DNA of 64,000 nt, taken from assembly GCA_902800355.1 (NCBI GenBank), contig CADCEE010000004.1, positions 16,175 through 80,174 of the forward strand, written 5' to 3'. A model generated the notes under the pieces. It made no database searches and had not been told where the DNA came from. It was given only the letters and a program-made list of their open reading frames with translations. Shown piece after piece: positions 11,007 through 48,635 of this stretch. The position numbers were made by a program, and so were the translations under genes. This stretch comes from an uncultured Erysipelotrichaceae bacterium. Lineage in GTDB: Bacteria; Bacillota_I; Bacilli_A; RFN20; CAG-826. Within the stretch, counting starts at the first letter, position 1, and every line of letters begins with the position of its first letter.

Positions 11007-11801
11007 TTAAAATTGAATGCAATCAAGGGCTAACATAATAATAAAGCCTAAAATAAATGACCAAACTCCAAAATGATCATGACCTTCACTAGTCATTTCT
11101 GGAATCATTTCTTCGGCGACCACATAAATCATACATCCTGCAGCAAAAGCTAATGCCCAAGGCATAATGCCTTGAATTTGCATAGCTAAGAATAGACCAA
11201 TAACTGCAGCGATTGGTTCTACTATTCCTGATAACATTCCAAAGACAAATGCTTTTTTAGATGATCCTGTTTCACTTTTAATAGGTAAAGAGACCACTGC
11301 TCCTTCTGGGATATTTTGTATACCAATACCAACCGCTAATAATAAAGCGCCCATTAATAAAGCTGCGTTATTTGGTTGAGAAAGCGCGACACCAAAAGCA
11401 ATACCAACTGATAGTCCTTCTGGAACATTATGAATGGTGACTGCGATAAACATCTTACTTGTTTTACTTAGTCTTCTAGTTGGTAAACCTTCATCAGAAT
11501 TCTCAGAAGCGTGAAAGTGAGGAATAATTTTATCGATAAGCCATAAAAATCCCGCTCCTAGAGCAATAGATATCATTACTATCACCCAAGTAGGCATATA
11601 ACTTACATTTGCCTCTAAAGCTGGTTTAATTAATGAGAAAAATGAAGCGGAAAACATTACCCCAGCGGCAAAGCCAATAAATATCTTATTTAATCTAGGA
11701 GAAATATCTTTTTTTCTTATAAAGAAAACAAATAACGCTCCTAAAGTTGTACATATAAATATTAAAGGTATCCCAATTAAAGGGTAGACATATTGTTCCA
11801 T
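11007..11801 (-). CDS. ZIP-family divalent metal transporter (ZupT/GufA-like)
   Basis: 8 TM helices; HNVPEGLSVG and QNIPEGAVV motifs. Confidence 0.88.
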   Translation of the reverse strand: MEQYVYPLIGIPLIFICTTLGALFVFFIRKKDISPRLNKIFIGFAAGVMFSASFFSLIKPALEANVSYMPTWVIVMISIALGAGFLWLIDKIIPHFHASENSDEGLPTRRLSKTSKMFIAVTIHNVPEGLSVGIAFGVALSQPNNAALLMGALLLAVGIGIQNIPEGAVVSLPIKSETGSSKKAFVFGMLSGIVEPIAAVIGLFLAMQIQGIMPWALAFAAGCMIYVVAEEMIPEMTSEGHDHFGVWSFILGFIIMLALDCIQF

Positions 11802-24077: not shown

Positions 24078-25718
24078 TTGGCTAATTTTACTAATATGAC
24101 AAAGATTAGTGATGAAACGAATATAGAAAGAATAGAACACAAGAGTAAAAAGAATATGGCTCTTGGAACCATTTTCGGTTACTTATCTATTTTAGTGAGC
24201 GTTGTTCATGGCTTTATTCTCACTCCAATGATTATGGATTCTGTTGGTGTTGAAGAATATGGTTTTTTTGGTATTGCTACTTCAATCATCACTTTGTTCC
24301 TTCTTGATTTTGGATTAAACACTACTACAGAAACCTATTTAGCAAAATTAAGAGCTAAAGGCGATAAAGATGGTGTTCAAAAATTCTTAGCTTCTATCTT
24401 TAAGATATATCTAGCACTGGACATTATCTTTATCGTTGTTATCGGTTCTATATATTTCCTTAGTCCAATAATCTATAGATCGTCATACACTCCTGAACAA
24501 ATTCAAAAATTACAATATCTATTACTCATCATCGGTGGATACACTCTTGTAAGCTTCCCAACTAACACATTCTCAGGAATGATTCAAGCCTATGAAAAAT
24601 TTGGGTTTAATAAATTTACCGACTTAATTCAAAAGTCTCTCTATTTAGTGTTCACAATCGTCGCAATTAAGTTAAATTGGGGTATTGTTGGTATCACTGT
24701 CGTTAACGTCGTTAGTTTTACTGTTGCAATCATCATGAGATTCTTCTACATGAGATTCTATTTAGGAATCAAATTAGATCTCAGATTAAAGATTGAACGA
24801 AGCGAACTTAAATCCGTTATTGCTTTCTCGGCTTGGGGATTAATTATCGCTATTGGAAATAGATTAGTGTTTAATATCACTCCTTCTATTTTAGGTATTG
24901 TTTCTAGTAGTGACCAAGTCAGTATGTTTATGTTAATAAACACAATCGAAGGATACGTCTATTTATTCGGTGCGATGACTGGAACCTTCCTCATGGCAAA
25001 AGTTGCTCGAGTAGAATCAACTGGTTCACCAGAAGAAAAACGAGCAAGATTACAAGCTTTAGCGAATAAAGTCGGTAAACTGCAATTCTTCGTTATCGCC
25101 TTTATCATCTTTGGATTTGCTTCAGTTGGACTTGATTTCATTCATATCTGGATTCCAGCTCAAGTAGCTGAGCACCCAGACTTTGTTAACATCTATTGGT
25201 GTATCTTAGCGATATGTGCCTATGAACTTGTTCATATCCCTGAATTACCTCTATATAATGCGATGCTAACCGGAGGTCATATTAGGCCTTTAGCAATTAG
25301 CACTATTATTAAGGCTGTTGTTAATGTTGGATTATCATTCACCTTATCGTCCTTCTATGGCGCGGTTGGTGCCTGTGTTGCGATTGCCGTTGCGCGTGTT
25401 ATCGATTGCACTATCACTAACTTCACTTATAAGAAGTATCTCGGAATATCTTTACTCAACTTCTTTGGGTTTATCTATATTAGAGGATTTATCACAGTTG
25501 CTATTTCCTTTGGATTAGCGTTACTCTGCTACTTCTTCTTACCTGTTAAAAACCTCTATTTAAAATTCTTTATCGAAGGAATTGTGTTCGTCGTATCATA
25601 TATCGTTTTAGCGTTCACGGTGTTATTTACGAAAAATGAACGAAGATATTATTTAGACGTCTTTTTTGAAATCTTACACATTAAAAAGAAAGCCAAGCCA
25701 CAAAATGAAAAAGCTTAA
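24078..25718 (+). CDS. Wzx-type oligosaccharide flippase (MOP superfamily)
   Basis: About 14 TM helices, polysaccharide-biosynthesis-protein pattern. The start is uncertain (TTG at 24078 or ATG at 24096). Confidence 0.8.
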   Translation: MANFTNMTKISDETNIERIEHKSKKNMALGTIFGYLSILVSVVHGFILTPMIMDSVGVEEYGFFGIATSIITLFLLDFGLNTTTETYLAKLRAKGDKDGVQKFLASIFKIYLALDIIFIVVIGSIYFLSPIIYRSSYTPEQIQKLQYLLLIIGGYTLVSFPTNTFSGMIQAYEKFGFNKFTDLIQKSLYLVFTIVAIKLNWGIVGITVVNVVSFTVAIIMRFFYMRFYLGIKLDLRLKIERSELKSVIAFSAWGLIIAIGNRLVFNITPSILGIVSSSDQVSMFMLINTIEGYVYLFGAMTGTFLMAKVARVESTGSPEEKRARLQALANKVGKLQFFVIAFIIFGFASVGLDFIHIWIPAQVAEHPDFVNIYWCILAICAYELVHIPELPLYNAMLTGGHIRPLAISTIIKAVVNVGLSFTLSSFYGAVGACVAIAVARVIDCTITNFTYKKYLGISLLNFFGFIYIRGFITVAISFGLALLCYFFLPVKNLYLKFFIEGIVFVVSYIVLAFTVLFTKNERRYYLDVFFEILHIKKKAKPQNEKA

Positions 25719-26745
25719 AGTATTACAAATTATCGGAAGTATGAACGCCGGAGGCGTTGAATCTTTCGTCATGAGTTATTTCCGTGAACTCCACGAATTA
25801 TGTGAATTTACTTTCCTTTGCTTTGATCATGTAAAACATCTTCACGCTTTTAATAAAGCATTAACAAAAGTCTTTAAAGATAATCATTTTGATATCGTCC
25901 ACTCTCACTTAAATACATTAAGTGTCTTTCCTTTAAGGGTGGCAAAGAAATGTAAGCAGCCAATTAGAATCGCTCACTCCCACTCAATAAGTAGTAAAAA
26001 AGAATGGAAGAGACATTTAGCGAAGTCAGTGTTAAAAACATTCTCCAAAACATATTCTAATGTCTATTTCTCTTGTAGTGAGCTCACTGGAAGATATCAA
26101 TTTGGCAATAAAGCCTTTGATAAAGGTGAAGTGACTGTTATTAAGAATGCGATTAAAACTTCACGCTTTGAATTTAATGAAGGATATCGCAAAGAAATCC
26201 GTAATGAATTAGGCTTAGGCGAAAAAGACTACGTCATTGGAACTTTAGGACGTTTCGTTGATACAAAGAACCATCAATATGTCTTAAAGCTCGCCAAAGA
26301 TAATCAAGATATCAAATTCATCATCGTTGGTAATGGGCCACTTGAAGTTGAATATAACGCCTTTTTAAAAGAAAATAACTTAAGCAATATCCAAATCATC
26401 GTTCCAGATCAAAATAAAGAAATCGCTAGATACTATTCAGCGATTGATATGTTTATTCTTCCTTCACTATATGAAGGATTCCCACTATCATCCTTAGAAG
26501 CCCAAGTTAATGGATTATATATCATTTATAGCGAATCAGTTCCTAAAGAAGGATTTATTACAGGTTATGGTGAATTCCTTCCAATCACTGAAGAAGGTCT
26601 TGCTAAGTGGAAAGAATCATTCCATAAGCCACATCCAAGAAACAATAAGCTCGCGAATGTTGTTAGAGAGCGTGGTTATGATATCAAAGACGCCGCTAAG
26701 GCTTTATATGACAAATATCTAGAGCTATTAGAAACCCACAAATAA
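25705..26745 (+). CDS. Family 4 (GT-B) glycosyltransferase
   Basis: Start taken at MKKLKVLQIIGSMNAGGVE. EGFPLSSLEAQVNG (EX7E). Overlaps the flippase stop by 14 nt. Confidence 0.85.
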   Translation: MKKLKVLQIIGSMNAGGVESFVMSYFRELHELCEFTFLCFDHVKHLHAFNKALTKVFKDNHFDIVHSHLNTLSVFPLRVAKKCKQPIRIAHSHSISSKKEWKRHLAKSVLKTFSKTYSNVYFSCSELTGRYQFGNKAFDKGEVTVIKNAIKTSRFEFNEGYRKEIRNELGLGEKDYVIGTLGRFVDTKNHQYVLKLAKDNQDIKFIIVGNGPLEVEYNAFLKENNLSNIQIIVPDQNKEIARYYSAIDMFILPSLYEGFPLSSLEAQVNGLYIIYSESVPKEGFITGYGEFLPITEEGLAKWKESFHKPHPRNNKLANVVRERGYDIKDAAKALYDKYLELLETHK

Positions 26746-26770: not shown

Positions 26771-26804
26771 AAACAAAAACAGTACCGAATTATATCAGTA
26801 CTGT
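26771..26804 (-). terminator. Rho-independent terminator next to the displaced tRNA 3' fragment (probable original tRNA-fMet terminator)
   Basis: On the minus strand: CAGTAC-N12-GTACTG followed by TTTTTGTTT, immediately downstream of the 12-nt tRNA remnant. Confidence 0.6.
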
Positions 26805-26812
26805 AGTTTACA

Positions 26813-26824
26813 CTTGGTTGCGGA
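26813..26824. repeat. Direct repeat, copy 1: duplicated 3' end of tRNA-fMet (att-like islet boundary)
   Basis: CTTGGTTGCGGA is identical to 29927-29938. The extended match TAC(A/G)CTTGGTTGCGGA is 15/16. Confidence 0.7.
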
Positions 26825-26900
26825 TAACTAAAGTGGTACATTTTACCCTAAAAAGCGGGGGTGCAGACACCACAAGTGATACGTTTTGATCTAAAAACTA

Positions 26901-27731
26901 TTAATCATCTATTTCTCGATACATTTTATTTCTGTTTTTCAATAGTTTTTGTAATTCGTTTTGAACAGCTTTATTCTTTTTGATAAAATCCCTTGCCCAA
27001 GGTTGTAAAGAAAAGGCGAATTCATATAGTCCAATGGAAACACTTGAAACTCTCACAACAAAAAACTCAGATTGAAGTAAACAAATAGTTCCATTAGATA
27101 AAGAATAGTAACCAACGCCACTTTCGGAATAATATATTTCTCCCAATATTCTTTTTGCTCCAGGAGCCAAATCCTTATACTGAGATTCTAAGAACTTTAT
27201 TCTTTCTTTTTCTAATTCTTTTTCGCTTTTGTTCTTGTTCTCAACAAGGATTTCAACATCTGATTTTGCAGACTCCAAAAAAGTTGAAATAGCTTTATTT
27301 AAGATTGAAATCTTGTTTGTGATTTCTAAAAAATCTCCACACCAATCACAAAGTGCGGAAATTCCATCAGTGTTAATAAGATTATACTTATAAGAATTAT
27401 CGACAAAACCCGATATTTCCTCATCTTCTATATCATTTGCTTTAAGAATGAAAAATGGCTTATCATCATTAGAAAGGCAGGCAGCACCCAGTTCTTGAGT
27501 GCAGTAGGAACTGTTAATAAAGTTCTTCGTTATGAAATACAGAATTGCAGAGCAGTCATTTATCTCTTTTTTAATTTCGGTATTAATTCTTTTTCCGTTT
27601 TTCACGCCTTGGCCTTCAACAGAACTACAAAAAATATCATCTGGCTTTACACCGATTGAATTTAATAAAGTAATCAGTTTCTTTATAACCGATATATCTT
27701 TTGAAGAATGACTTATAAAAATTTTACCCAT
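26901..27731 (-). CDS. TIR-domain protein with coiled-coil and an uncharacterised C-terminal domain
   Basis: The N-terminus IFISHSSKD...AILYFITKNFINSSYCTQELGAA matches the bacterial TIR pattern, including a candidate catalytic Glu. Residues ~150-190 are a K/E-rich coiled coil. I do not recognise the C-terminal ~90 aa. Confidence 0.75.
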   Translation of the reverse strand: MGKIFISHSSKDISVIKKLITLLNSIGVKPDDIFCSSVEGQGVKNGKRINTEIKKEINDCSAILYFITKNFINSSYCTQELGAACLSNDDKPFFILKANDIEDEEISGFVDNSYKYNLINTDGISALCDWCGDFLEITNKISILNKAISTFLESAKSDVEILVENKNKSEKELEKERIKFLESQYKDLAPGAKRILGEIYYSESGVGYYSLSNGTICLLQSEFFVVRVSSVSIGLYEFAFSLQPWARDFIKKNKAVQNELQKLLKNRNKMYREIDD

Positions 27732-27752
27732 ATTATACCCTTAACATTTTTG

Positions 27753-27761
27753 ATTATACCA
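27753..27761 (-). promoter_or_regulatory. Extended -10 promoter element (TGGTATAAT) for the TIR gene
   Basis: The minus strand reads TGGTATAAT about 20 nt upstream of the ATG; an AAGGG SD follows. Confidence 0.4.
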
Positions 27762-27871
27762 AAAATGCATTTCTAAAAAAACATCATCAGTCATAAAGAT
27801 AGTCTTCAAACGAATAAGTATATTCAGATGTCTTCATTAATAACCTTGCATCTTAATGAAAGACGACAGCA

Positions 27872-27893
27872 ATAAAAAAGCGGGAATCCCCGC
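27872..27893 (-). terminator. Rho-independent terminator after the Abi_2 gene
   Basis: On the minus strand: GCGGGG-att-CCCGC followed by TTTTTTATTG. It separates the Abi and TIR transcription units. Confidence 0.8.
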
Positions 27894-27946
27894 AACCAGT
27901 ATTTCTCTGGCTATGTACCTATATTATATATAAAGTTATACAAAAG

Positions 27947-28792
27947 TCAAAGAATTTTCGACACTGTATTTGCAGACAAAGAGTGTCTAGATGGATATGT
28001 CGCAAGTAGCGTTGAAAAATCTTTTATCAATCTCTTAAGTTCTTTTCTAAATTCATTGCCACAACTCAATTGTTTAATTAGAAAAAACAACACTGCTTCG
28101 AAATATGATAAGTAGACACCCGTCATTGGAGAATAAGCATTATTGATAATGTAACGACCACCATATTTAGATAATTGATCTGCAAATTTCTTAGTAATTA
28201 TATGATTGCCGTGCGCACATCGATTTCGTAAGACCCTAATAGATTCGAAATAATTGAGCAGTAAATCATATGTATGAACAGGTAAATGCGAAGTGTATTT
28301 ATCGATAAACGGTTGTTCATATGTTGTGTCTATATATCTATAAACAGTTTCAAAACAGCCAAAAGACATAGAATACATAGCAACATAATTCAATGGACCA
28401 ACGCTGGAAGGTGACATTTTATCAATACTGTTTTGAACATTGTTTTTGGTTAAACAAAAAATAGTTTTTTTACCAGGACGTCGTACTCTAGCTGTTGGAG
28501 TATAATATTTGCTAACTTTCCAAAATTGTTTTGATCTAGTTGCGTTTTCTACCATTTTGGCGAAGTCGCTCTTAATTTGAATTTCAAACCGCATTAAATA
28601 TTGAGTCAATAAAGCCCTCAGCCTTTCATCCAAGAAAAAGAATCCTAAAGCGTCGTTAACATTACCGTTTGAACATCTTAAAAAACCAAGAAAATAATAT
28701 TCACTGCATTTATTAGAAATATAGCTATTAATCTTTCTTAATTCAGCGGCGGTTACTGATGGATATTCTTTTCTAATTAAAGACTTTGCCAT
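27947..28792 (-). CDS. Abi_2 family (AbiD/AbiF-like) abortive-infection protein
   Basis: 281 aa. FLDERLRALLTQYLMRFEIQIKSDF and the conserved VLRNRCAHGNHI motif are typical of Abi_2. Confidence 0.75.
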   Translation of the reverse strand: MAKSLIRKEYPSVTAAELRKINSYISNKCSEYYFLGFLRCSNGNVNDALGFFFLDERLRALLTQYLMRFEIQIKSDFAKMVENATRSKQFWKVSKYYTPTARVRRPGKKTIFCLTKNNVQNSIDKMSPSSVGPLNYVAMYSMSFGCFETVYRYIDTTYEQPFIDKYTSHLPVHTYDLLLNYFESIRVLRNRCAHGNHIITKKFADQLSKYGGRYIINNAYSPMTGVYLSYFEAVLFFLIKQLSCGNEFRKELKRLIKDFSTLLATYPSRHSLSANTVSKIL

Positions 28793-28869
28793 ATTTATAT
28801 TGTAAATTTAAAGATTGTTTATTTCATTATTTTTATGAAATATTTTTATTTTATATGAGGAACAACTCA

Positions 28870-29862
28870 ATGATTAAGAAGGCACAATTATTAGAAGAAA
28901 ACAAGAAATTAAAAAGAAAACTATTTATTTGGGAAAACATAAATATAAGTATCAATTCATCAGTTAAAGAAAAAGAAATCGCTGCGGAAAAGTTTTTAAA
29001 CGAACACCCTGATTACAATCTTTATGAGGTAAGTGACACCATCAAAATCAATAGAGGAACATTATACCACCACCTTTATACAAGAGTAGAAAAACCTTGG
29101 TATGTTAAAAAGATTGAAACTTTATCAAAAGAAGTCATTGAAGTATTCGAAGAATCTAAAAGACTGTATGGTGCAGAAAAGATAGTCCTCGCTCTTAAAA
29201 GAAAAGGGATTACAACTGACAAGAAAATGGTTCTAAAGATAATGAGGGAAAATAAGTTAGAAAAAGCCACTATTGTTAAAAAGAAGAAACCAACTATTAA
29301 TTCTTGGAAATATAAAAAATTTAAGGATTTAGTAAATAGAGATTTTAAACAAGAAGCACCAAATAAAGTTTGGACCAGCGACTTTGTCGAAATAAAAGTT
29401 AGAGGGGTTAAATTCTATCTATGTATCATCTTGGATTTATATGCAAGAATGATCGTTGGGTGGCGATTATCTCATAATAAAAACGAGAATTTAGCCATCA
29501 ATACATTCAAGGATGCATTTGAAAAACGAAACGAACCTAGAAATTTGATTTTTCACTCGGATAGAGGAGCGGAATATACTTCCAATAATTTTAGAAAACT
29601 ATTAGAAATGCTGGGTGTCCAACAATCATTTTCTAAACCCGCTTCTCCAAATGATAATGCATGTACCGAAGGTTTTATTTCTAGGCTAAGAAGAGAAGAA
29701 ATCAATGTTAACATTGAAAGATATGAAAATTCTATGGTGATGCGAGAGTATTTAAGTCAATATTTTAATTTCTATAACAATAAAAGAATTCATACATTTA
29801 ATAATGGTCTAACCCCAAAAGAAAAAGAGGATGAATATTACCAAAATCACCCTCAAAAATAG
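28870..29862 (+). mobile_element. IS3-family transposase gene (single ORF; element ends not defined)
   Basis: HTH_21-like YGAEKIVLALKRKGITTDKKMVLKIMRENKL. DDE triad context WTSDF / HSDRGAEY / NACTEGF. Start taken at MIKKAQLLEENKKLKRK. I could not identify terminal inverted repeats by eye. Confidence 0.8.
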
Positions 29863-29882
29863 CCATAATTTTTTATTTATCC

Positions 29883-29916
29883 ATAAATAAAGCCGGAATC
29901 TATGTTCAATTCCGGC
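29883..29916 (-). terminator. Rho-independent terminator directly downstream of tRNA-fMet (islet side)
   Basis: On the minus strand: GCCGGAAT-N9-ATTCCGGC followed by TTTATTTAT. Confidence 0.75.
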
Positions 29917-29926
29917 ATACTGTACG

Positions 29927-29938
29927 CTTGGTTGCGGA
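29927..29938. repeat. Direct repeat, copy 2 (within and adjoining the tRNA-fMet 3' acceptor strand)
   Basis: CTTGGTTGCGGA is identical to 26813-26824. Confidence 0.7.
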
Positions 29939-30006
29939 GGTGAGATTTGAACTACACGACCTCCGGGTTATGGGCCCGACGAGCTACCAGGCTGCTCTAC
30001 TCCGCG
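29929..30006 (-). tRNA. Initiator tRNA-fMet (anticodon CAT)
   Basis: The reverse complement is CGCGGAGTAGAGCAGCCTGGTAGCTCGTCGGGCCCATAACCCGGAGGTCGTGTAGTTCAAATCTCACCTCCGCAACCA. It has the C1:A72 mismatch and three GC pairs closing the anticodon stem, and is close to E. coli tRNA-fMet. Encoded CCA. Confidence 0.85.
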
Positions 30007-39648: not shown

Positions 39649-41406
39649 TTATTCTCCTTTGAGTTTTATTTCAAACACTGTGTTATTTAAGTTAAGTATA
39701 CGCATATAAGTCATCTTATCGGTAATATTTTTGATAAGTTTTAATCCACTTGTAGAATATTCTTCTTTCTCATCAAACTCCACTTTAGTCGGATCAAATG
39801 GCACTCCATCATCCCTTATTCTTAATAATAAGGTATCTTTGAAAAGTTTTAAATTAATATCAATATAATCGTGACTCTTTTTCTTATAGCCATGGTTTAT
39901 GATGTTATCCACCATCTCTTCAGCGGCAAGTCCCACTATTTGGCTTTCTCTATTTGGAATATTATGACTTTTGGCAAATTCAGTAATTTGTTCTGAAACA
40001 ATAGATGCGTTTTGTTCATTGTTATCTAACGAGACATCAAATGATTCAACATCAAGTTTCTCAAGCATGAAAATACCACTACATTTTTTTCGTTTGTTAT
40101 AGAAGTGGATGAAGATATAAACAATTATTACTGTCGCTACTTCATTAATCCAACATGCCATGCAATACCCCATAAGTCCGTTTGTGTGCAGCAACACAAG
40201 CGTTAAAGGTAAGACAATTATTAATTCTCTTAAAAATACAGTAACCATAGATGGAACTGTCTTATCGATGGTTGGATAGTAGTTAGTTGAGAATTTGTTA
40301 ATTTCATATGGGATAAAGGAAATAAGATAAACCCATAAGACAGAATTAATAGTAGCAATATCTCCAGAATAATCCGCTCCAAAGATCGCACAATACGCTC
40401 CTGGGAAAATCAAAACAAATAAAGAAATAAGGACAGTAATTCCAATGTTAATCCAGTAAATTTTTCTTGTTACTGATTTAAGTGAATAATAGTCTTTTTC
40501 TCCATAAAAGATGCCACACAAGTTAGGAATAATATTAAGCACTCCTCCACAAAGTAGGTCAAACAAGAACACCATATTTGAGATTAATCCATAGAGCACT
40601 AATTCATCCCCAGTAAATAATTTTCCGATAAAAATATTGACGATTAGCATTTGAATTGCTGTCAAAAACATATTAATTGCAGAAGCAGAGGTAGCCTTGA
40701 AAATACTCTTAGCCCCACTATTTCTAATATTAAAAGTTAAGGTTAACATTTTCTTTTTACTAGTTAAGTAGAAAATAGTAACAATCGCCCCCACTAAATA
40801 TCCTGCTCCAGTAGATAAGGCAGCACCTAACATTCCATATCCTGAATCTTTCATAACAGTAATAAGTAAGACTTCAAGTCCAACTTTTGCGGCGTTAGAA
40901 ACAATATAGAAAACTGATGATAATTTAGGGCTATTATCTACCGCCATAAAAGATCCAATTAACAACGCATAAGTAATAATTGGATCAGTTAATAAGAAAC
41001 CTAAAATATATTGTCTACAAAGTTCAGTATCTCCTCCAAATAAAGAGGCTAATGGTTCGGCAACAGGGAAAGCAATAAGAGCAAATAATATCGAAATTGA
41101 CATACCAACAATAATAGAGAAAGAGTATGCTTTTTTAGCGCCTATTACATCTCTTTTGCCTAGTAAGGTCGCAACGACTATCGCCCCTCCAATTCCTAAA
41201 GCGAATCCTGGAATTTGTACAATATATAAAATCGGCATCACTAAAGATGACGCACTAAGAGCGGTTGGTCCAAGATAGTTGCCAATTAAAATACCGTCGA
41301 CAAGTGAGCCGAACTGCATCGCAAAAATCATTAAGATTGAAGGAATTAAATAAGTAATGAATTTACGATTAATAAGTTTAGAATTTCTTTTTAATGTTGT
41401 CGTCAT
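39649..41406 (-). CDS. MATE-family efflux transporter fused to a C-terminal RsbW/SpoIIAB-like HATPase domain
   Basis: About 12 TM helices (aa 1-440) with a MATE-like pattern. The C-terminal ~140 aa (nt 39649-40074) carry N box EEMVDNIINHG, G1 RDDGVPFDP and GLKLIKNITDKMTY. The start ATG overlaps the NRPS TGA stop (ATGA). Confidence 0.8.
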   Translation of the reverse strand: MTTTLKRNSKLINRKFITYLIPSILMIFAMQFGSLVDGILIGNYLGPTALSASSLVMPILYIVQIPGFALGIGGAIVVATLLGKRDVIGAKKAYSFSIIVGMSISILFALIAFPVAEPLASLFGGDTELCRQYILGFLLTDPIITYALLIGSFMAVDNSPKLSSVFYIVSNAAKVGLEVLLITVMKDSGYGMLGAALSTGAGYLVGAIVTIFYLTSKKKMLTLTFNIRNSGAKSIFKATSASAINMFLTAIQMLIVNIFIGKLFTGDELVLYGLISNMVFLFDLLCGGVLNIIPNLCGIFYGEKDYYSLKSVTRKIYWINIGITVLISLFVLIFPGAYCAIFGADYSGDIATINSVLWVYLISFIPYEINKFSTNYYPTIDKTVPSMVTVFLRELIIVLPLTLVLLHTNGLMGYCMACWINEVATVIIVYIFIHFYNKRKKCSGIFMLEKLDVESFDVSLDNNEQNASIVSEQITEFAKSHNIPNRESQIVGLAAEEMVDNIINHGYKKKSHDYIDINLKLFKDTLLLRIRDDGVPFDPTKVEFDEKEEYSTSGLKLIKNITDKMTYMRILNLNNTVFEIKLKGE

Positions 41407-44400
41407 AAGTCGGTCCTCTCAAAGAAGCCAAGAGTGTCGAGCGACTCAATCGCATTCTTTAAATATTGATAATCAGTAATCGGCCACTTATATCCTAAGT
41501 GATAAAGGCTCTTATTAGTGAACTCATTATCAGAAAGAATAAAGCTGTGGGTATGCATATCACTACTAGAATAAGAGATTAAGGATGAGACTAACATGCT
41601 CTTAGAATCATCTAGCATCATTTCTTTCATCGATTTTAAGAATTCATCGTCGCTCACTATTTCAATTCCAAATCCAAGTTCATTTAAGACATAGATTATG
41701 TCACCCATCTGCACCATATGTGAGTTAGCAGAGTGATAAACAGTGAATTTAGATGGAGTTTTACTAAGTAAAAGAATAGTCTTAGCAACTTCATCAATTG
41801 GAGAGAAGTCAACTTCAACATCCATAGAATTCACTGGGAATTTCTTAAGCGTAGCGTAGCCTTTTAAGTCTCTCATAAAGCCGTTAGTAATAGAGTTAGC
41901 CTGGAATTCTCCGTCACTTTGTCTACTCATAAGATTACCAACACGGATGATCTTGCCGTCTAATCCATCTTTATCTACGGCTTCAAGTAATGCTTTTTCA
42001 GCATCAAACTTGGAGTGGACATATTTGTTAGATACGTCTTGACCAAAGTCTAACATATCTTCTTTCATCCTAAAGGATGAGTCGAATTTATTATCAATAT
42101 TTTCGCCCGCAACTGAAAGTGTAGAGATTTGAACCAATCTCACTTTCTTCTTTTTAGCGATTTCAATTAAGTTTTTCACTCCTCCAACATTAACGTGTTC
42201 AATAATGTCGTCATTAGCGAAGTGTTTCACTATTGCGGCAGAGTTAATAATTAAGTTGAAATCATAATCTTTAAGTTTTTCACCTAATGTCTCATCAGTG
42301 ACATCCCCATCAACAATAGTGACATATTTATCAACTTCCTCAGTTAAAGGAGAATCAAAATAGTAAGCAAGTAAGCCTAATAAACGATCTTTAGGATTGA
42401 GCTTACCGCCTCTAATTAAAGCGATAGTAGCAACCTTTTGATCTAATAACTCTTTTAAGATGTGGATACCTAAGAATCCTGTAGAACCGGTTAATAAAAC
42501 TTTACTAACTTTATATTCATCTTTTGTGTCATTAACTTCGTCTACAATATTATGGGCCAAACTACCTAGTTCAGCTTTTTGTTCTTTAGCTTCTACTTTA
42601 GTAGGCTCACTAGTGTCTACCCCTGAAAGAGAATTGATATGTTTTTCAAGTTCTAAAACAGTGGAGTAATCAAAGACGTCGCCATAGGCAATTGGTAAAC
42701 CCATATTTAAGGCAAGCATTGCCACTTTAGAAACGCTTAATGATGTACCTCCCATTTCAAAGAAGTCATCATCCACTCCGACATTATCTTTACCTAAAGC
42801 TTTCTTAAATAATGTTAAGAGTTTTTCTTCTAAATCATTAGAAGCAGATTTCACTTCTTTCTTTTCTTCCTTAACTTCAATCTCTGGAAGTGATTTCTTA
42901 TCAATTTTGCCGTTAGGGGTAAGTGGGAATTTATCTAACTGCATCACCACTTTTGGAACCATATATGGAGTTAAGTATTTACCCATATGTTCAAGTAATT
43001 GATCTTTATCAACTTGGCTTGAAGCAGTAAAGTATGCCGCTAAATAATCTCCTTCTGGGCTTTGTTTAACTAAAATAATGCTTCTAGTAACTGAGTTATA
43101 GGAGTTAAGGACTCTTTCAATTTCATCAAGTTCCACTCTTAAGCCTCTTAATTTCACTTGGTTATCAAGTCGACCAAAGAATTCAACGTTACCTTCGCTG
43201 TTGATTCTAGCCATATCACCACTTCGATAAGCTTTTAAGCCGTTAATTTCAATAAAGGCTTCTTTAGTTTTTTCTGGTAAACCCAAATAACCTAAACCAA
43301 CTGATTCGCCGGCAATAGTTAAATCACCAATAGCGTTGATTGGTAAGATATGTCCGTGTTTATCTAAAGTAAATACTTTAGAGTTAGCGACCGGTTTACC
43401 AATAGTCATATATTTATCTTTGACTAAAGCGTATGTTGCGGTAATTGTAGTTTCGGTTGGACCATATCCATTTAAGATATTCGCGTTAACGCCTAAACTT
43501 CTAAGTCGATTACATAGTTCCATAGGTACAGCTTCTGCACCCATATCTAGATATTTAAATCCCTTTAAAGCGTCCACGAAGACATCAATATCTAATAAAT
43601 TAGATACAAAGGATGGAGTCATGAACATATATTTCACATGGTTCTCTTTTAAAGTTTTAGCGAGTAACATTGGATTTTCAATTTCTTCTTCACTGGCAAT
43701 TACTGCGGTATAGCCGTGAGTAAGAGGCACAAATTCTTCTTGCAAAGAAGCGTCAAAAGATAAAGAAGCAAATGAACAGCTCACGCAGTCCTCTCCAATG
43801 TCGCGATAGCAAATTGTCGCTAAGTTAGAGTCATCTAAAACATAGTTAAGTAAATTCTTGTGAGCGATCATCACTCCTTTTGGTTTACCTGTAGAACCAG
43901 AAGTATAAATGACATAGGCCATGGAAGATTGAGGAATCTTAACATCAGGATTATTAATCTCTTTAGACTGTAAAAGATCTTCAATCGCTAAAGTCTTCAC
44001 TTTAGTGGATTTAATTAATTCTTGTTTTTGCTTAATAATTTCACGAGTGGAAATTAATAATTTAGAGCCAGAATCAGTAATAATATAGCTCACTCTTTCA
44101 TCTGGATATTTTGGATCTACAGGAACAAAAGCTCCACCAGATTTCGCAATACCTTGTCTTACAACATATGCTTCTTTAATTCGCGGCATAAACATCACTA
44201 CACAATCCGCAAGTTTCACGCCTTCTTTAATTAAAGCGTGCGCAACTTTATTGGCGGATTCGTTAAGTTCTTGATAAGTTAATTTGCCGTTTTTGGCCAC
44301 TACTGCCACTTTACTTGGTCTATCTATAGCTTGTTTTTCAACTAACTTATTAACAGTAATGTCTTTAGGCATTTCTACTTCAGTTTGATTGAACTTCTCA

Positions 44401-47400
44401 TATTGAGCTTTATCAAACTCAGGGAGGCAATTAATATCTTTGATATTCTTTTTAGTTAATAACTCATTTAAGACTAATTCATATAAGCGTTTAAAGGAGT
44501 CAATTGTGTCTTTAGTGTACACGGCTTGATCCCATTCAAAATGAGCGCGATATTTCTCGTTTTCTAAGAAAATATCTAAACCAAAATCACTCTTAGGAGT
44601 TTCACTTTCCATTAAAATTGGAGTGACTTTAAACCCCCCTAAAGTTTCAAAATTAAAGTTATCTCCTTGATAAGCGAAAATAACATCCGCTTTTAAATTA
44701 TAGTCATTAGCGACATCGCCAAAGGAATATAAATCGTTTTCTTCTAAGCCAGAAAGTAATTCTTGCATTTGTTTAACTTTTGATAAAACTAAATCTTCTT
44801 CCGTATATTTGATATAAACCGGTAAGGTTTTAACAAACATGGAAACACTATTCATCACTTTCGAAGATTTTCTACCGTTATAAATGGTTTCATATAAGGA
44901 ATCATCTTTATAGATGAATTTTGATAATGTAAAAGCAAAAGCGAAGTTAAATAAGGCGTTATTAGTTAGCTTGTTAGACTCAACGTATTTCTTTACTAAC
45001 TCGTTGTCTAAATCTAATTCATAGTCGATAGATTGGAGTTTAGAGATTTCTTCAACCTTTAAATCCTTTTTAAGAGTGTATTCCCCGTCTACATCCTTAA
45101 GAACTTCGTTATAGTAGGCTTTAGCCTTATCTAATTTAGGAGAGGCTAAATCTTCTTTTTCTTGAAGCGCCACTTCATAGCCTGTATAGGTTTCTGGAGT
45201 TAATTTTTCTCCTGAATAAGCTTTATCAATATCACTTAAAATAATAGCTTCAGAAGTGCCGTCACATAAAATGTGATGGAAATCTAAGAAGAGATAGTTT
45301 TCTTTTCCTTCATAAATCTCTACGCGGTATAATTCACCATCTAAAATCGAGAACGGTCTCACTAAAGATTTAATATCAATTTCTTTTTTAAGAATTTCCA
45401 CTTTAGCAGGGTTACTATTTCTTCTAGCGACAATATCCCCACTATCATTCATATGTAAGATAGATTTTAAATATGGATGGTTATCAATAGTTTGACTAAC
45501 CGCTTCTTTTAATTTGGCTAAATCCATCTTTTTATCTAACTTAAATAAGTAAGGGATATTGTAATTAGTGCTATTAGGTTTAGAAACGCATTCAACAAAT
45601 ATTCCTTCTTGAGTTTTAGTAAGAGGATATTCATCTAAAACTTCAAAAGTCTTATCGTCTTCTTTATTTGCTAAAAATTCCGCTAAAGAAGCAATTGTGG
45701 AATGTGCTTTTAAATCACCATTTTCAACAGACTTGTTATATTTCTTTGATAAAAGAATAGTAAACCTAATAGATGATACTGAAGTTAATCCTACTTCAAA
45801 GATGTCATTAGTGACACCAAATTGGTCATGACCTAATACACCTTTTAAGATATCAAAGATATCTTGTTCAGCAGCGTTTCTCGGAGCAACCATTTCTTCA
45901 ACTTTAAGTTCAGGAACTGGTAAAGCTCTCTTATTAACCTTTTGATTTTGGTTAAGAGGAATCTTATCAATCTGCATTGTATAAGCAGGAACCATATAAG
46001 GTGGTTTTTGCTCTAAGATGAAATTATTAAGTTCTTCAACATTAATCTTTTTATCGCTAACTACATAAGCCACGATATATTTCACCCCACTAGGGTCGGT
46101 AAAATCTTTTACAGTGGCGTCTTTAATATCTTTAAAGTCTCTAATCACTTTTTCAACTTCAGAAAGTTCCACTCTAAAGCCACGGATCTTTACTTGTCCG
46201 TCTTTTCTTCCGATAAAGTCAATTGTCCCATCTTCTAATAGACGCACAATGTCACCGGTTTTATATAACTTTTCAAATTTTTCTTCTTTGGTAAACCAGT
46301 TAGATAAGAACGCTTCGCTATTTTCTTTTTCTCTATTTAAATAGCCTCTAGCAACTTGAGGTCCAGAGATATATAGTTCTCCACTAGTTAAAATTGGTAA
46401 TCTCTTTTTATTCTTGTCTAAGATATAAATCTTATAATCACTCAAGCATTTTCCAATCGGGATACGGTGATAGAATTTGTCCACTAATTGGAGGGTGCAG
46501 AAGACTGTACCTTCGGTAGGTCCATATAAGTTATAGAATTTATAGCCTTTAGGAGGATCCATAGGTACTAACTTTTCTCCTCCAACAGCGAAATATTTTA
46601 ATGATTTCACTTCAATCTCACTAGCGAATTGTCTACCAACTTGAGTAGTCATAAAAGCGTGAGTGATTTGATTTTTATTATAATATTCACCTAATTCCAC
46701 TAAATTGAGTCTCATCTCATCAGGAATGATATAGACAGTGGCCCCACTAGTTAATGATGGGTATAAATCCATCATATCTGCGTCAAAGCCATAACTAGCA
46801 TAGGCTGCACTTCTATTACCGACGCCTAGATTAAATTCTTGGCGGTAATATCTCACAAAACTAAAGATGTTGCCATGCTCTAACATCACACCTTTAGGAA
46901 CTCCTGTGGAGCCAGAAGTATAAAGCATGATAAATAAATCTTTAGGGGATGGTCGAGTTTTAATTTCTGTATTATCTTTTAAAGATAAAAGTTCATCAGT
47001 AAATAACTCTTTACCTTTAAAGTCATCCACTAAATCATTAAGTTCTCTATCTCTAATTAAGATAATGGCACTAGAGTCTTTAACCATGAAAGTTAATCTA
47101 TCTTTTGGATAAGTTGGGTCTAATGGCTGATAAGCTGCTCCAGACTTGATAACACCTAAAGAAGCTAAAACGATATATTCAGATTTCTTCACTAAAATAG
47201 AAACAACTTTCTCTTTTTTAGCTCCTAATCTAATTAATTCATTAGCGATTCTAGTAGAGATCTCATCAACTTCCTTATAAGTGTACTTTTTATCTTTAAA
47301 AACTACCGCCACTTCGTTAGGATGTTTTTTCACTACATCTAAGAAGTCATCTAAGATGGTTTTACCATCTTCAATATATGGGAAATTGGTATTATTAAAG

Positions 47401-48635
47401 GAATCAAGTAATTTAGTTTCTTCTTCGTCTAATAAATCAATATCAATAAGTCTTTCTTTCTTTAAGAATTCTGACATCACCACTTCATACATTTTAATGA
47501 TGTGTTTAATTGTGGACTCATTATATAAATCAGCACGATATTCCACCCAGATAATATATTTACCTTCTAAACGATGAAGTTCGACACTGAGTTTTTCTTT
47601 GCCATCTTTTCTTAATAATGGAGTAACTTCAAGTAATTTACCTTGATATTCACCAGAATAGAAATAATCACCTTGATAAGAGAATAAGACATCCGCACTT
47701 ACTCCAAAGTCTTTATTCATATCCGCAAAAGGATAGATGTTATGCTTAACATTATCAATTTGTTGTGCATTTGTTTTTAACAAATAATCTTTAACTTTAT
47801 CTTCGTCAGTATAGCTTAAATAAAGTGGATAAGTTTTAACATATGAACCTACACTCCTAGCGACGCTTTCATCTCTTCCGTTATGTACCGCTAAGAATAA
47901 AGCCTCGTTTTCCATATTAATCTTACTTAATAAGTAAGAGAACGCACCTAAGAAGAAGGAAGATGTTTTAATACCTAGTTTCTTAGTCAAAACTTTAACG
48001 TCTTTATCAGTAACATCTAAAGGAACACGGATATTGCCCCAAGAAACTTCTTTATCTTGTTTATCTTCTACTGGGGTAGAGTCAGTTTCAACTCCTCCAA
48101 CTAACTTTTCATAGTAATCTTTTGCTTCAATATATTTTTTAGACTTCAAGTCTTTTTCTTCTTTACTCGCAAATTCATTCGCATCAGATTTTTCAACTTC
48201 TAATTTCTTGCCCTCAAGAGCTTTTAAGAAATCACTTATAAAGATATGAATTGAAGTTCCGTCCATAATAATGTGATGGAAATCAAAATAGAAAACATAT
48301 TCATCTTTTACTCTGTAAAGTTTGAATCTATATAGGTGTTTATTAGTTAATTCATATGGTTTTGAATCAATCTTCACTTCCTTAACTTCTTCATAAGGGA
48401 GTTTGATTTCTTCTTCTTCGATGTGTTTAGTGATATTTCCTTCTTCATCAATGGATAAAACAGTAAATAAATAAGGATGAGCCTCAAAAACTGCTTTTAA
48501 GGCGTTAGCGACTTGTTCTTTAGTAACACCTCTACCTAAGTTAATCGTATTAGCGAGGTTATATGCATCTCCTGAATTTAAAGAAGAGATATATAATCCT
48601 TGTTCACTTTTAGATAATGGATAATGTTTATTCAT
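41403..48635 (-). CDS. Bimodular nonribosomal peptide synthetase, C-A-T-C-A-T-R (terminal thioester reductase)
   Basis: C1 FHHIIMDGTS (~nt 48262-48282). A1 LYTSGSTGVPKG (~46888-46925), YKTGD, GRKDGQVKIRGFRVEL. T1 FEVGLTSVS (~45790). C2 FHHILCDGTS (~45260-45285). A2 IYTSGSTGKPKG (~43876-43912), YRSGD, GRLDNQVKLRGLRVEL. T2 FEMGGTSLS (~42740-42760). R domain LLTGSTGFLG (~42470-42500) and YVHSKFDAEK (~41995-42028). Confidence 0.93.
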   Translation of the reverse strand: MNKHYPLSKSEQGLYISSLNSGDAYNLANTINLGRGVTKEQVANALKAVFEAHPYLFTVLSIDEEGNITKHIEEEEIKLPYEEVKEVKIDSKPYELTNKHLYRFKLYRVKDEYVFYFDFHHIIMDGTSIHIFISDFLKALEGKKLEVEKSDANEFASKEEKDLKSKKYIEAKDYYEKLVGGVETDSTPVEDKQDKEVSWGNIRVPLDVTDKDVKVLTKKLGIKTSSFFLGAFSYLLSKINMENEALFLAVHNGRDESVARSVGSYVKTYPLYLSYTDEDKVKDYLLKTNAQQIDNVKHNIYPFADMNKDFGVSADVLFSYQGDYFYSGEYQGKLLEVTPLLRKDGKEKLSVELHRLEGKYIIWVEYRADLYNESTIKHIIKMYEVVMSEFLKKERLIDIDLLDEEETKLLDSFNNTNFPYIEDGKTILDDFLDVVKKHPNEVAVVFKDKKYTYKEVDEISTRIANELIRLGAKKEKVVSILVKKSEYIVLASLGVIKSGAAYQPLDPTYPKDRLTFMVKDSSAIILIRDRELNDLVDDFKGKELFTDELLSLKDNTEIKTRPSPKDLFIMLYTSGSTGVPKGVMLEHGNIFSFVRYYRQEFNLGVGNRSAAYASYGFDADMMDLYPSLTSGATVYIIPDEMRLNLVELGEYYNKNQITHAFMTTQVGRQFASEIEVKSLKYFAVGGEKLVPMDPPKGYKFYNLYGPTEGTVFCTLQLVDKFYHRIPIGKCLSDYKIYILDKNKKRLPILTSGELYISGPQVARGYLNREKENSEAFLSNWFTKEEKFEKLYKTGDIVRLLEDGTIDFIGRKDGQVKIRGFRVELSEVEKVIRDFKDIKDATVKDFTDPSGVKYIVAYVVSDKKINVEELNNFILEQKPPYMVPAYTMQIDKIPLNQNQKVNKRALPVPELKVEEMVAPRNAAEQDIFDILKGVLGHDQFGVTNDIFEVGLTSVSSIRFTILLSKKYNKSVENGDLKAHSTIASLAEFLANKEDDKTFEVLDEYPLTKTQEGIFVECVSKPNSTNYNIPYLFKLDKKMDLAKLKEAVSQTIDNHPYLKSILHMNDSGDIVARRNSNPAKVEILKKEIDIKSLVRPFSILDGELYRVEIYEGKENYLFLDFHHILCDGTSEAIILSDIDKAYSGEKLTPETYTGYEVALQEKEDLASPKLDKAKAYYNEVLKDVDGEYTLKKDLKVEEISKLQSIDYELDLDNELVKKYVESNKLTNNALFNFAFAFTLSKFIYKDDSLYETIYNGRKSSKVMNSVSMFVKTLPVYIKYTEEDLVLSKVKQMQELLSGLEENDLYSFGDVANDYNLKADVIFAYQGDNFNFETLGGFKVTPILMESETPKSDFGLDIFLENEKYRAHFEWDQAVYTKDTIDSFKRLYELVLNELLTKKNIKDINCLPEFDKAQYEKFNQTEVEMPKDITVNKLVEKQAIDRPSKVAVVAKNGKLTYQELNESANKVAHALIKEGVKLADCVVMFMPRIKEAYVVRQGIAKSGGAFVPVDPKYPDERVSYIITDSGSKLLISTREIIKQKQELIKSTKVKTLAIEDLLQSKEINNPDVKIPQSSMAYVIYTSGSTGKPKGVMIAHKNLLNYVLDDSNLATICYRDIGEDCVSCSFASLSFDASLQEEFVPLTHGYTAVIASEEEIENPMLLAKTLKENHVKYMFMTPSFVSNLLDIDVFVDALKGFKYLDMGAEAVPMELCNRLRSLGVNANILNGYGPTETTITATYALVKDKYMTIGKPVANSKVFTLDKHGHILPINAIGDLTIAGESVGLGYLGLPEKTKEAFIEINGLKAYRSGDMARINSEGNVEFFGRLDNQVKLRGLRVELDEIERVLNSYNSVTRSIILVKQSPEGDYLAAYFTASSQVDKDQLLEHMGKYLTPYMVPKVVMQLDKFPLTPNGKIDKKSLPEIEVKEEKKEVKSASNDLEEKLLTLFKKALGKDNVGVDDDFFEMGGTSLSVSKVAMLALNMGLPIAYGDVFDYSTVLELEKHINSLSGVDTSEPTKVEAKEQKAELGSLAHNIVDEVNDTKDEYKVSKVLLTGSTGFLGIHILKELLDQKVATIALIRGGKLNPKDRLLGLLAYYFDSPLTEEVDKYVTIVDGDVTDETLGEKLKDYDFNLIINSAAIVKHFANDDIIEHVNVGGVKNLIEIAKKKKVRLVQISTLSVAGENIDNKFDSSFRMKEDMLDFGQDVSNKYVHSKFDAEKALLEAVDKDGLDGKIIRVGNLMSRQSDGEFQANSITNGFMRDLKGYATLKKFPVNSMDVEVDFSPIDEVAKTILLLSKTPSKFTVYHSANSHMVQMGDIIYVLNELGFGIEIVSDDEFLKSMKEMMLDDSKSMLVSSLISYSSSDMHTHSFILSDNEFTNKSLYHLGYKWPITDYQYLKNAIESLDTLGFFERTDL

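Follow-up and report, generated by a model that had tools for sequence, protein, structure and literature searches.

How does an islet of about 3.1 kb without a recognizable integrase gene come to lie at the very end of a tRNA gene? This question is raised by a 64,000-nucleotide stretch of DNA from an uncultured Erysipelotrichaceae bacterium (contig CADCEE010000004.1, positions 16,175 to 80,174), referred to here as the window, in which genes for a TIR-domain protein, an Abi_2 protein, and an IS3-family transposase adjoin the 3′ end of the initiator tRNA gene, tRNA-fMet. We propose, with a probability that we put at about two in three, that positions 26815 to 29926 of the window are an autonomous cargo-carrying transposon belonging to a subgroup of the IS3 family that homes to tRNA 3′ ends. 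Read from left to right, the putative element begins with a left end and continues with a pair of minus-strand cargo genes, the transposase gene on the plus strand, and a right end with a hairpin, followed by a 2-nt spacer and the CCA end of tRNA-fMet. It lies between tRNA-fMet and the former terminator of this tRNA.

Insertion between tRNA-fMet and its former terminator

The target, an intact gene with an encoded CCA end, was identified as tRNA-Met(CAT) at positions 29929 to 30006 (minus strand) by ARAGORN and Rfam (50.7 bits for the Rfam tRNA model), and the initiator features of a C1:A72 mismatch and a GGG/CCC anticodon stem can be read from its sequence. The 64-kb window contains two exact copies of the dodecamer CTTGGTTGCGGA and no more, one at 26813 to 26824 and the other at 29927 to 29938, in both cases on the plus strand. 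Since the tRNA ends at 29929, the right copy consists of the last 10 nt of tRNA-fMet, including CCA, plus 2 flanking nt. These are the dinucleotide CT (29927 to 29928), the spacer between the right tip of the element and the tRNA, which is 2 to 3 nt long in all clades of the family described below; CT also flanks the left tip (26813 to 26814, plus strand). About 0.002 exact matches to the dodecamer are expected by chance, as estimated from base composition. Matches with at most one mismatch averaged 0.10 in 100 dinucleotide-preserving shuffles, none of which reached two. A repeat search extended the repeat pair to 18 of 21 positions. A terminator scan recovered a minus-strand hairpin with a T-tract by each of the two copies, at 29916 to 29892 (folding z score of −3.97) and at 26804 to 26779 (−3.96); the latter, the displaced terminator, is designated terminator A. 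Both the repeat of the tRNA end at the two junctions and the terminator beside each copy, as reported in the first-pass annotation of this DNA, were thus confirmed. An Rfam scan of the islet at a permissive threshold returned nothing except the tRNA, and the G+C profile was discarded as a marker of the islet, which does not separate from its flanks (31% versus 33%).

Loci carrying the neighboring DeoC gene came from rumen and gut metagenome-assembled genomes (MAGs) labeled Erysipelotrichaceae or Bacilli. As to the proposed check for empty sites in related genomes, in seven loci (L005, L007, L008, L009, L013, L018, and L019), the CCA of tRNA-fMet is followed by two bases and then by ..TGTAAACTACAGTnCTGATA..CAGnACTGTTTTT, the homolog of the distal hairpin of the window (26775 to 26812). 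Because these relatives join the tRNA directly to that hairpin, about 3.1 kb have been placed between tRNA-fMet and terminator A. A search for a same-species empty site with the exact protein sequence of the neighboring glycosyltransferase found no record. The islet and both of its junctions are 99.9 to 100% identical in three independent metagenome assemblies and are therefore not a misassembly; samples containing the islet include ERZ28614624/SAMEA5384006, ERZ1029116, and ERR3201395. That the repeat is a coincidence and the region ordinary ancestral sequence, without any insertion, can for practical purposes be set aside: the shortness of the repeat is all that speaks for this view, whereas the shuffles, the direct joining of tRNA and distal hairpin in relatives, and the recurrence of the element ends with other cargo all contradict it. 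L003, the closest relative by DNA, shares its right end and its Abi_2 gene with the window, but its transposase gene has suffered an internal deletion. In L001, a 1.24-kb transposase-less element encoding a lipoprotein and an XRE membrane protein lies between the tRNA and terminator A. Transporter operons are also found in the tRNA-fMet flank of related genomes, in which this flank is a general integration hotspot used by several systems.

Other occupants of the site were noted. At the rpsU-tRNA-fMet site, L261 (6512 to 9797) and L264 (6462 to 9772) carry two large serine recombinases and a tyrosine integrase, and L265 (6574 to 12177) carries a resolvase/EcoRI-methylase/GmrSD island. Transposase-less modules (L082, 8062 to 8700; L117, 3387 to 5552; L085, 8060 to 9250; L005, 11058 to 13216) adjoin tRNA-fMet directly or sit between it and a transposase element. 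They are composed of a left tip, TGG(A/C)AAT(A/G)AGCGAAAG.., followed by variable cargo (a DUF5131/MarR/radical-SAM operon, a GNAT gene, or a 159-aa open reading frame [ORF]) and then by terminator A. In L023, a 22-nt 3′ fragment of tRNA-fMet without CCA (GTTCAAATCCACCCTCCGCAAC, approximately 11085 to 11110) follows the intact tRNA at a distance of about 75 nt and looks like an att scar of the integrase type. In L004, L010/L082 (approximately 5400 to 5450 in L082), L015, L017, and L022, a decayed, inverted partial tRNA-fMet is located past a “type B” terminator (AAAAAAAGACCC..GGGTC), so that the real tRNA and the pseudo-tRNA converge on this one hairpin.

The transposase

The gene at 28870 to 29862 (plus strand) encodes, in a single ORF, a 330-aa DDE (rve) transposase of the IS3 family with Pfam matches to rve, rve_3, and HTH_21 and a score of 247.2 bits against the NCBIfam model NF033516 (transpos_IS3; cutoff, 160). 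In the protein alignment (A5), the catalytic residues D171 (WTSD) and D231 (HSDRG) are invariant, E267 is conserved in at least 90% of the sequences, and an arginine is present at +7. The ratio of nonsynonymous to synonymous substitution rates (dN/dS) is 0.08 to 0.16 in comparisons with four relatives, indicating that the transposase gene is maintained under purifying selection. The N-terminal HTH_Tnp_1 region of canonical IS3 fusion proteins of 375 to 390 aa is absent from the protein. There is no orfA/orfB frameshift arrangement, as the single ORF begins 78 nt from the start of the Abi_2 gene without any upstream orfA. A PDB sequence search with the transposase gave no match.

The islet had been called integrase-less, which is accurate insofar as no Phage_integrase or Resolvase domain was detected among its ORFs; it does not lack a recombinase, since it encodes its own DDE transposase. 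Searches with phmmer using two tyrosine integrases, which have limited sensitivity, detected no tyrosine recombinase between 15 and 42 kb of the window or in the tRNA-associated loci described below, the only matches being in outgroup loci without tRNA association. The islet had also been regarded as decayed. We found no visible decay, and the ORFs of the TIR and Abi_2 genes are both intact.

Association of transposase homologs with tRNA ends

Homologs of the transposase span 30 to 97% identity. In the first set, from 36 genome loci and 43 metagenome loci, their genes are almost always convergent with a tRNA or transfer-messenger RNA (tmRNA) gene, whose 3′ end is located 62 to 86 nt beyond the end of the transposase protein match. 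A census was made of the 52 near-full-length homologs with enough downstream DNA. An intact convergent tRNA or tmRNA gene was present at 62 to 86 nt in 35 of them, and in 9 more exactly that position was taken up by the left tip of another element or by a 3′ piece of a tRNA. The tRNA was at 168 nt in one case and missing in the remaining seven. The targets in the census were tRNAs for fMet, Glu (two anticodons), Thr, His, Ser (three anticodons), Arg, Lys, and Leu, as well as tmRNA. A profile scan added 69 more distant homologs (30 to 57% identity), about 45 of which have a convergent tRNA within 250 nt. Each of these tRNA-linked homologs is followed by a hairpin, a right tip ending in ..TTCA, 2 to 3 nt, and then the TGG of the tRNA. 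In total, about 25 tRNA species and tmRNA serve as targets, and the hosts include the cultured Flavonifractor sp. An92, Pseudoflavonifractor phocaeensis, Bittarella massiliensis, Oscillibacter sp. 1-3, and Sinanaerobacter chloroacetimidivorans.

Clustering of the proteins revealed that transposase clade and tRNA target agree. All 11 members of the fMet clade are located at tRNA-fMet, and separate clades go with Glu, Thr, His/Ser, and Lys. One Clostridia cluster is promiscuous (Arg, Leu, Ser, and tmRNA): copies that are 94 to 95% identical in DNA are found at Arg-ACG, Leu-CAG, and tmRNA. The Ser tRNAs are occupied by members that have diverged further. Loci without a tRNA belong mostly to outgroup clusters. 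The control P0050, a canonical IS3 protein (source name, [Clostridium] leptum), is only a partial control, since one of its contexts consists of a hairpin, ..TTCA, CT, and tRNA-Gly, the others being without tRNA. P0050 was also observed to travel with an upstream gene encoding a 791-aa AAA_13 ATPase, with varied downstream contexts (L166, L167, and L173; 270 to 2645/182 to 2557). The ATPase gene is possibly another defense-type cargo in a related element.

The fixed geometry at tRNA and tmRNA ends, the conserved right-end module, and the purifying selection together argue that the transposase is not a passenger, contrary to the initial view that the IS3 gene is part of the cargo. These data also bear on the classical explanation of such loci, in which a tyrosine or serine integrase, later lost or acting in trans, built the islet with the 12-bp repeat as the att core, and the IS3 transposase arrived later as a passenger. 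The perfect direct repeat of the tRNA end is what this explanation predicts, L261 and L264 show that the tRNA-fMet site can host a tyrosine integrase as well as large serine recombinases, and the 22-nt tRNA 3′ fragment of L023 is typical of integrase scars. Chance passengers cannot, however, explain a transposase that keeps one position and orientation relative to the tRNA end across about 90 loci and about 25 tRNAs. The transposase is under selection, the searches for tyrosine recombinases were negative within their limited sensitivity, and eight sibling elements carry a different sequence, TGGGGGCAGA, at the left junction, leaving no common att core beyond TGG. We therefore regard construction of the islet by an integrase as very improbable.

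Ends of the element

In 11 comparisons within the fMet clade, the sequences become homologous to the window at 28869, a single base ahead of the transposase ATG, and remain so up to the right tip. The right end (29863 to 29926, plus strand) contains the hairpin detected by the terminator scan (29892 to 29916; z = −3.97) and finishes with the tip ...CTGTACG. It is 94 to 97% identical in L081, L082, L083, and L003, independently of the sequence that follows. With its T-tract on the tRNA strand, the hairpin is a replacement terminator for the tRNA in the Bacilli clades, including that of the window. Read inward from the tRNA, all clades display the 2- to 3-nt spacer and then a YG tip, namely, CGTACAG.. 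in the window and TGTGAAC.., TGGAACAC.., TGAGGGG.., TGCACTGG.., and TGAAYGAG.. in other clades. On the opposite strand, YG reads as the CA or CG with which IS3 elements typically terminate at their 3′ end.

The right-end hairpins (29892 to 29916 in the window; also within the 60 nt preceding the tRNA in L187, L200, L207, and L224) often contain the T-loop-like motif GTTCGAA, GTTCAA, or TTGAAC about 16 to 18 nt from the right tip, roughly mirroring the position of the T arm in the adjacent tRNA. Mimicry of the T arm by the right end (TGAAC about 18 nt from the tip) was rejected as a family-wide feature, as it is confined to the Bacilli clades and does not extend to the His, Ser, Lys, and Clostridia clades, Ser-GCT being among those that lack it.

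The left end is a conserved 68-nt sequence (26815 to 26882, plus strand; alignment A6, eight copies) in which a directly repeated motif, ..GCAGA..ACTAAAGTG(G/A)TAC, is present in two copies. In the eight loci its edges are sharp, with three different tRNA-fMet terminators before it and unrelated cargo after it. The tip in the window, TGGTTGCGGA (26815 to 26824), is identical to the tRNA end, and the window is the only copy with the exact tRNA sequence at this position. The tip is TGGGGGCAGA in L081, L082, L118, L161, L162, L163, L164, and L165, independently of the flank; TGGGGGCAGA and TGGTTGCGGA are alike at 7 of 10 positions and share the initial TGG. Further subclades have left ends starting with TGTACCGGTG.. 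or TGG(A/C)AAT(A/G)AGC... Since TGGGGGCAGA travels with the sibling elements, the decamer is the element's own left tip and not simply a fragment of the tRNA, and since eight siblings carry TGGGGGCAGA, the perfect 12-nt repeat is an exception rather than the att core of the family. The insertion point of the siblings is two bases past CCA, and their tRNA is intact.

Several proposals of the first-pass annotation need to be revised on this basis. Integration at the tRNA 3′ end is upheld by the approximately 3.1 kb found between the tRNA and its former terminator, although the repeat is not a typical att core. The islet was thought to supply both a new tRNA end and a new terminator; the terminator stands, but the tRNA 3′ end does not, given the insertion of siblings 2 nt past CCA. 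The idea that the left copy is the displaced original tRNA fragment is not supported, TGGGGGCAGA being present in eight siblings whatever the flank.

Identical dinucleotides border the left and the right tip in two of seven elements of the fMet clade, those of the window (CT/CT) and of L082 (TT/TT). A 2-bp target duplication is possible for CT/CT. As general rules, target duplications of 12, 3, or 2 bp were all rejected, as none fits all copies. At the tRNA-Ser-CGA junctions of L134 to L148, which are related human gut contigs, the spacer is CT, AA, CA, TG, GA, or GTT next to a right tip, TATGCA, in otherwise nearly identical sequences. This variation hints at repeated independent insertions or at a variable joining step. 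With respect to terminal inverted repeats, the window has TGG.. at its left tip and ..TACG at its right tip, and other clades end in ..CA. Left ends of the His clade were sought and not found. A guide RNA encoded by the element was considered and rejected, as the Rfam scan yielded only the tRNA and the 68-nt left end has no significant fold (z = −1.7 and −0.4).

Elements can be arranged in tandem, a right tip being followed by two bases and the left tip of the next element (L122, L082, L117, and L085). In other clades, right tips are followed by incomplete tRNA ends, which measure 7, 10, and about 22 nt (L138, L127, and L145).

Cargo and neighboring genes

The first cargo gene (26901 to 27731, minus strand) encodes a 276-aa protein with an N-terminal TIR domain (Pfam TIR_2, 4.9e−10) and a C-terminal half to which no domain was assigned. 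Among the PADLOC models, it matched SpbK-type TIR with an E value of 1.3e−20 and, weakly, the ThsB models (1.5e−9). No gene resembling that of ThsA, the SIR2/Macro-SLOG effector partner, was present among the islet genes, and because this partner is lacking, the TIR gene is not assigned to Thoeris. The second cargo gene (27947 to 28792, minus strand) encodes a 281-aa Abi_2/AbiD-like protein with an RNRCAH motif of the HEPN type (Pfam Abi_2, 1.4e−14; PF07751, 55.3 bits with a cutoff of 25.6; PADLOC AbiD, 3e−17). An intact copy of this gene, 91.6% identical, occupies the same site in L003. The suggested PADLOC analysis of the region thus recovered both genes, in keeping with their initial description as defense-type cargo. 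As predicted from these domain matches, the two proteins most likely provide abortive-infection-type phage defense. They are comparable to the single-gene defenses of the SpbK-type TIR and AbiD/Abi_2 kinds in matching the corresponding models and in displaying, as these do, a conserved TIR glutamate (..YCTQELG..) and the HEPN-like RNRCAH motif. They differ from SpbK in that the TIR domain of the islet protein is N-terminal, whereas the match falls in the C-terminal part of the SpbK profile.

A small hairpin with a T-tract was detected by the terminator scan between the two genes (27880 to 27893, minus strand); its fold alone is nonsignificant (z = −0.74). The best promoter-like site of the islet, TTGACT-16-TATAAT (11 of 12 positions), is located at 27950 to 27923 on the minus strand and overlaps the Abi_2 stop codon. 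It lies upstream of the small hairpin and is directed at the TIR gene, which may therefore have its own promoter.

In every case examined, the cargo lies between the left end and the transposase module, on the strand opposite that of the transposase. Its nature varies: an ArsR-like protein and a cation transporter in L081, L161, L162, and L085; XRE-HTH membrane proteins and lipoproteins in L082, L084, L118, and L163; an acetyltransferase and a PBECR4 nuclease in L083; a PDC-S45 trypsin-like protease in L100 (1.5e−73); an S51 peptidase in L110; and proteins with an RNxxAH motif in L099 and L113. L121 is a cargo-less insertion sequence (IS) form of 1.25 kb.

This variation of cargo between constant ends raises the possibility that the ends are long-term residents that served as homology arms and that the TIR and Abi_2 genes arrived by homologous recombination after DNA uptake. 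Elements with differing cargo cease to be homologous precisely where the left end meets the cargo and become so again precisely at the transposase ATG, as exchange between conserved arms would predict, and the tRNA-fMet flank is hypervariable in the group. In L003, a sister species, the same Abi_2 cargo is present at the same site with a host-like divergence, which suggests vertical inheritance and not recent hopping. Cassette exchange leaves unexplained, however, the spread of the scaffold to about 25 tRNAs and tmRNA, as well as the copies that are 94 to 95% identical at different tRNAs. It likewise fails to account for elements of two subclades having inserted at precisely one point of a shared flank (L081 and L084). 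As the sole explanation of the islet we consider it unlikely; it is plausible as a layer added to transposition rather than as its replacement.

Two further observations concern other genes of the window. In the glycosyltransferase gene (25666 to 26745), L256, which is from the same strain, has 63 extra in-frame bases at window position 25827, encoding 21 aa (..DSLVIPKEEIESLGGKVIIVP..), and the contig of L257 ends exactly at that point. The glycosyltransferase gene of the window may hold a small deletion or an assembly join at 25827. An ORF of 2,410 aa is located at 41403 to 48635 (minus strand).

Proposed mechanism of insertion

If positions 26815 to 29926 are a transposon, as we propose, the DDE transposase itself would perform the insertion, presumably by the copy-out/paste-in route of the IS3 family through a circular intermediate. 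In IS3 circles, the two ends are abutted with 3 to 4 bp between them (PMC2909936). The corresponding circle junction would read ...CTGTACG-(2 to 4 nt)-TGGTTGCGGATAAC..., and the unoccupied site would read ...GTAGTTTACA-CT-TGGTTGCGGAGG.... The transposase would recognize the DNA of the 3′ portion of the tRNA gene, and the right tip would be joined 2 to 3 nt beyond CCA in a single orientation. More speculatively, the 3′ end of the tRNA gene may serve as a surrogate for a transposon end, in the manner of the targeted insertion of IS911. The latter occurs next to sequences resembling the element's own ends and is RecG dependent, as summarized in PMC7986276. Our reasons for considering a surrogate end are this precedent and the resemblance of the arrangement right tip, 2 to 3 nt, and TGG of the tRNA to an IS3 end-to-end junction. 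Equally speculative is the suggestion that resolution by the host, acting in the short stretch of homology shared by the left tip and the tRNA end, turned the left tip of the window into tRNA sequence. The partial tRNA ends found after right tips in L138, L127, and L145 would fit such a combination of surrogate end and resolution.

Several points weigh against a tRNA-homing transposon. Neither a transposition event, nor a circle junction, nor a true same-strain empty site was observed. The dinucleotides flanking the tips differ in L081, L118, L084, L085, and L121, leaving no established target duplication. The inverted-repeat relation of the ends is clear in the Clostridia cluster and weak in the window clade, and a symmetry search for the left ends (left inverted repeats) in 30 distant loci gave none that was convincing. 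In IS911, an N-terminal helix-turn-helix (HTH) binds the element ends; the transposases of the window clade do not have this domain. Terminator A may itself be a right end of transposase-less relatives, and possibly a relic one, because TACTGTA and the ..CA/CG tip are common to it and to the right end of the islet. The “empty” sites consequently lack this islet yet may not be virgin. Finally, the data come almost entirely from MAGs and metagenome contigs, in which many loci represent related strains and not independent events.

With these points taken into account, we lean toward the more general proposal that a large subgroup of the IS3-family DDE transposases found in Firmicutes of the gut and rumen acts as site- and orientation-specific “tRNA-end integrases,” perhaps using the tRNA 3′ end as a surrogate end. 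The elements would serve as minimal shuttles, each carrying one to three genes that are often of the defense or conflict type, and would supply the tRNA with a replacement terminator. This group of tRNA-homing IS3-type transposons is probably widespread and apparently undescribed, as we found no description of tRNA-targeting IS3 elements in the open-access literature that we searched. If the transposase is responsible for targeting, it would constitute a single-protein DDE system for precise, harmless, one-orientation insertion beside highly conserved genes, and the choice of different tRNAs by different lineages would make target choice in IS3-type enzymes testable. Such programmable-looking specificity for safe sites would suggest a compact tool for site-specific integration. 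The annotation of “integrase-less” tRNA islets would also change, in that the integrase of such an islet may be the very gene labeled “IS3 transposase” next to the tRNA. The elements would represent a very small vehicle (1.2 to 3 kb) through which defense-type genes, along with other accessory genes, spread among uncultured Firmicutes of the gut and rumen.

Comparison with known systems

The islet resembles members of the IS3 family, such as IS911, IS2, and IS150, in its transposase, which combines HTH_21, rve, and rve_3 with an intact DDE triad, in its TG...CA/CG tips, and in the existence of a cargo-less 1.25-kb form (L121). The location of the right tip by a sequence starting with TGG, with a spacer of 2 to 3 nt, is likewise comparable to the 3- to 4-bp spacer of IS3 circle junctions (PMC2909936). 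It differs from the family by its single ORF without an orfA/orfB frameshift and, in the window clade, without the N-terminal HTH. The group to which the islet belongs further differs by its strict site and orientation specificity at tRNA and tmRNA 3′ ends, by the 1 to 3 kb of cargo between the left end and the transposase gene, and by asymmetric ends without a clear 3- to 4-bp duplication. A precedent for an IS with a functional target is ISAjo2 of the IS1202 family, which inserts on the XerC side of dif/pdif sites at a distance of 5 bp (PMC10132070). ISAjo2 is similar to the islet in being a DDE IS at a fixed distance and orientation with respect to a conserved functional site; it differs in belonging to another IS family, in targeting dif instead of a tRNA, and in having no cargo.

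With tRNA-integrating islands and prophages, the islet and its relatives share the location in the 3′ flank of a tRNA, the accessory and defense genes, the tandem arrays, and, in the window, the direct repeat of the tRNA end. They are distinguished from them by the absence of an integrase, the use of a DDE recombinase, and insertion after CCA as opposed to a crossover inside the tRNA; the sibling elements have only TGG and a partial similarity in common with the tRNA. Tn7, which uses attTn7 downstream of glmS, and the type V-K CRISPR-associated transposons (CASTs), which insert downstream of tRNA genes, also combine insertion in one orientation, a DDE enzyme of the rve superfamily, and cargo. 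The logic is the same, since a conserved essential gene is recognized and insertion takes place just downstream of it, but the islet has one small transposition gene and no TnsA, TnsC, TniQ, CRISPR array, or Cas12k, and elements of its type are 1.2 to 3 kb long versus 10 kb or more. In eukaryotes, Ty3 and the Dictyostelium TRE elements use tRNA genes as safe havens by means of retroviral-type integrases of the rve fold; they rely on RNA polymerase III factors and insert at some distance from the gene, on either its upstream or its downstream side. The islet differs from these retroelements as a bacterial DNA transposon positioned 2 to 3 nt after the CCA end of its tRNA.

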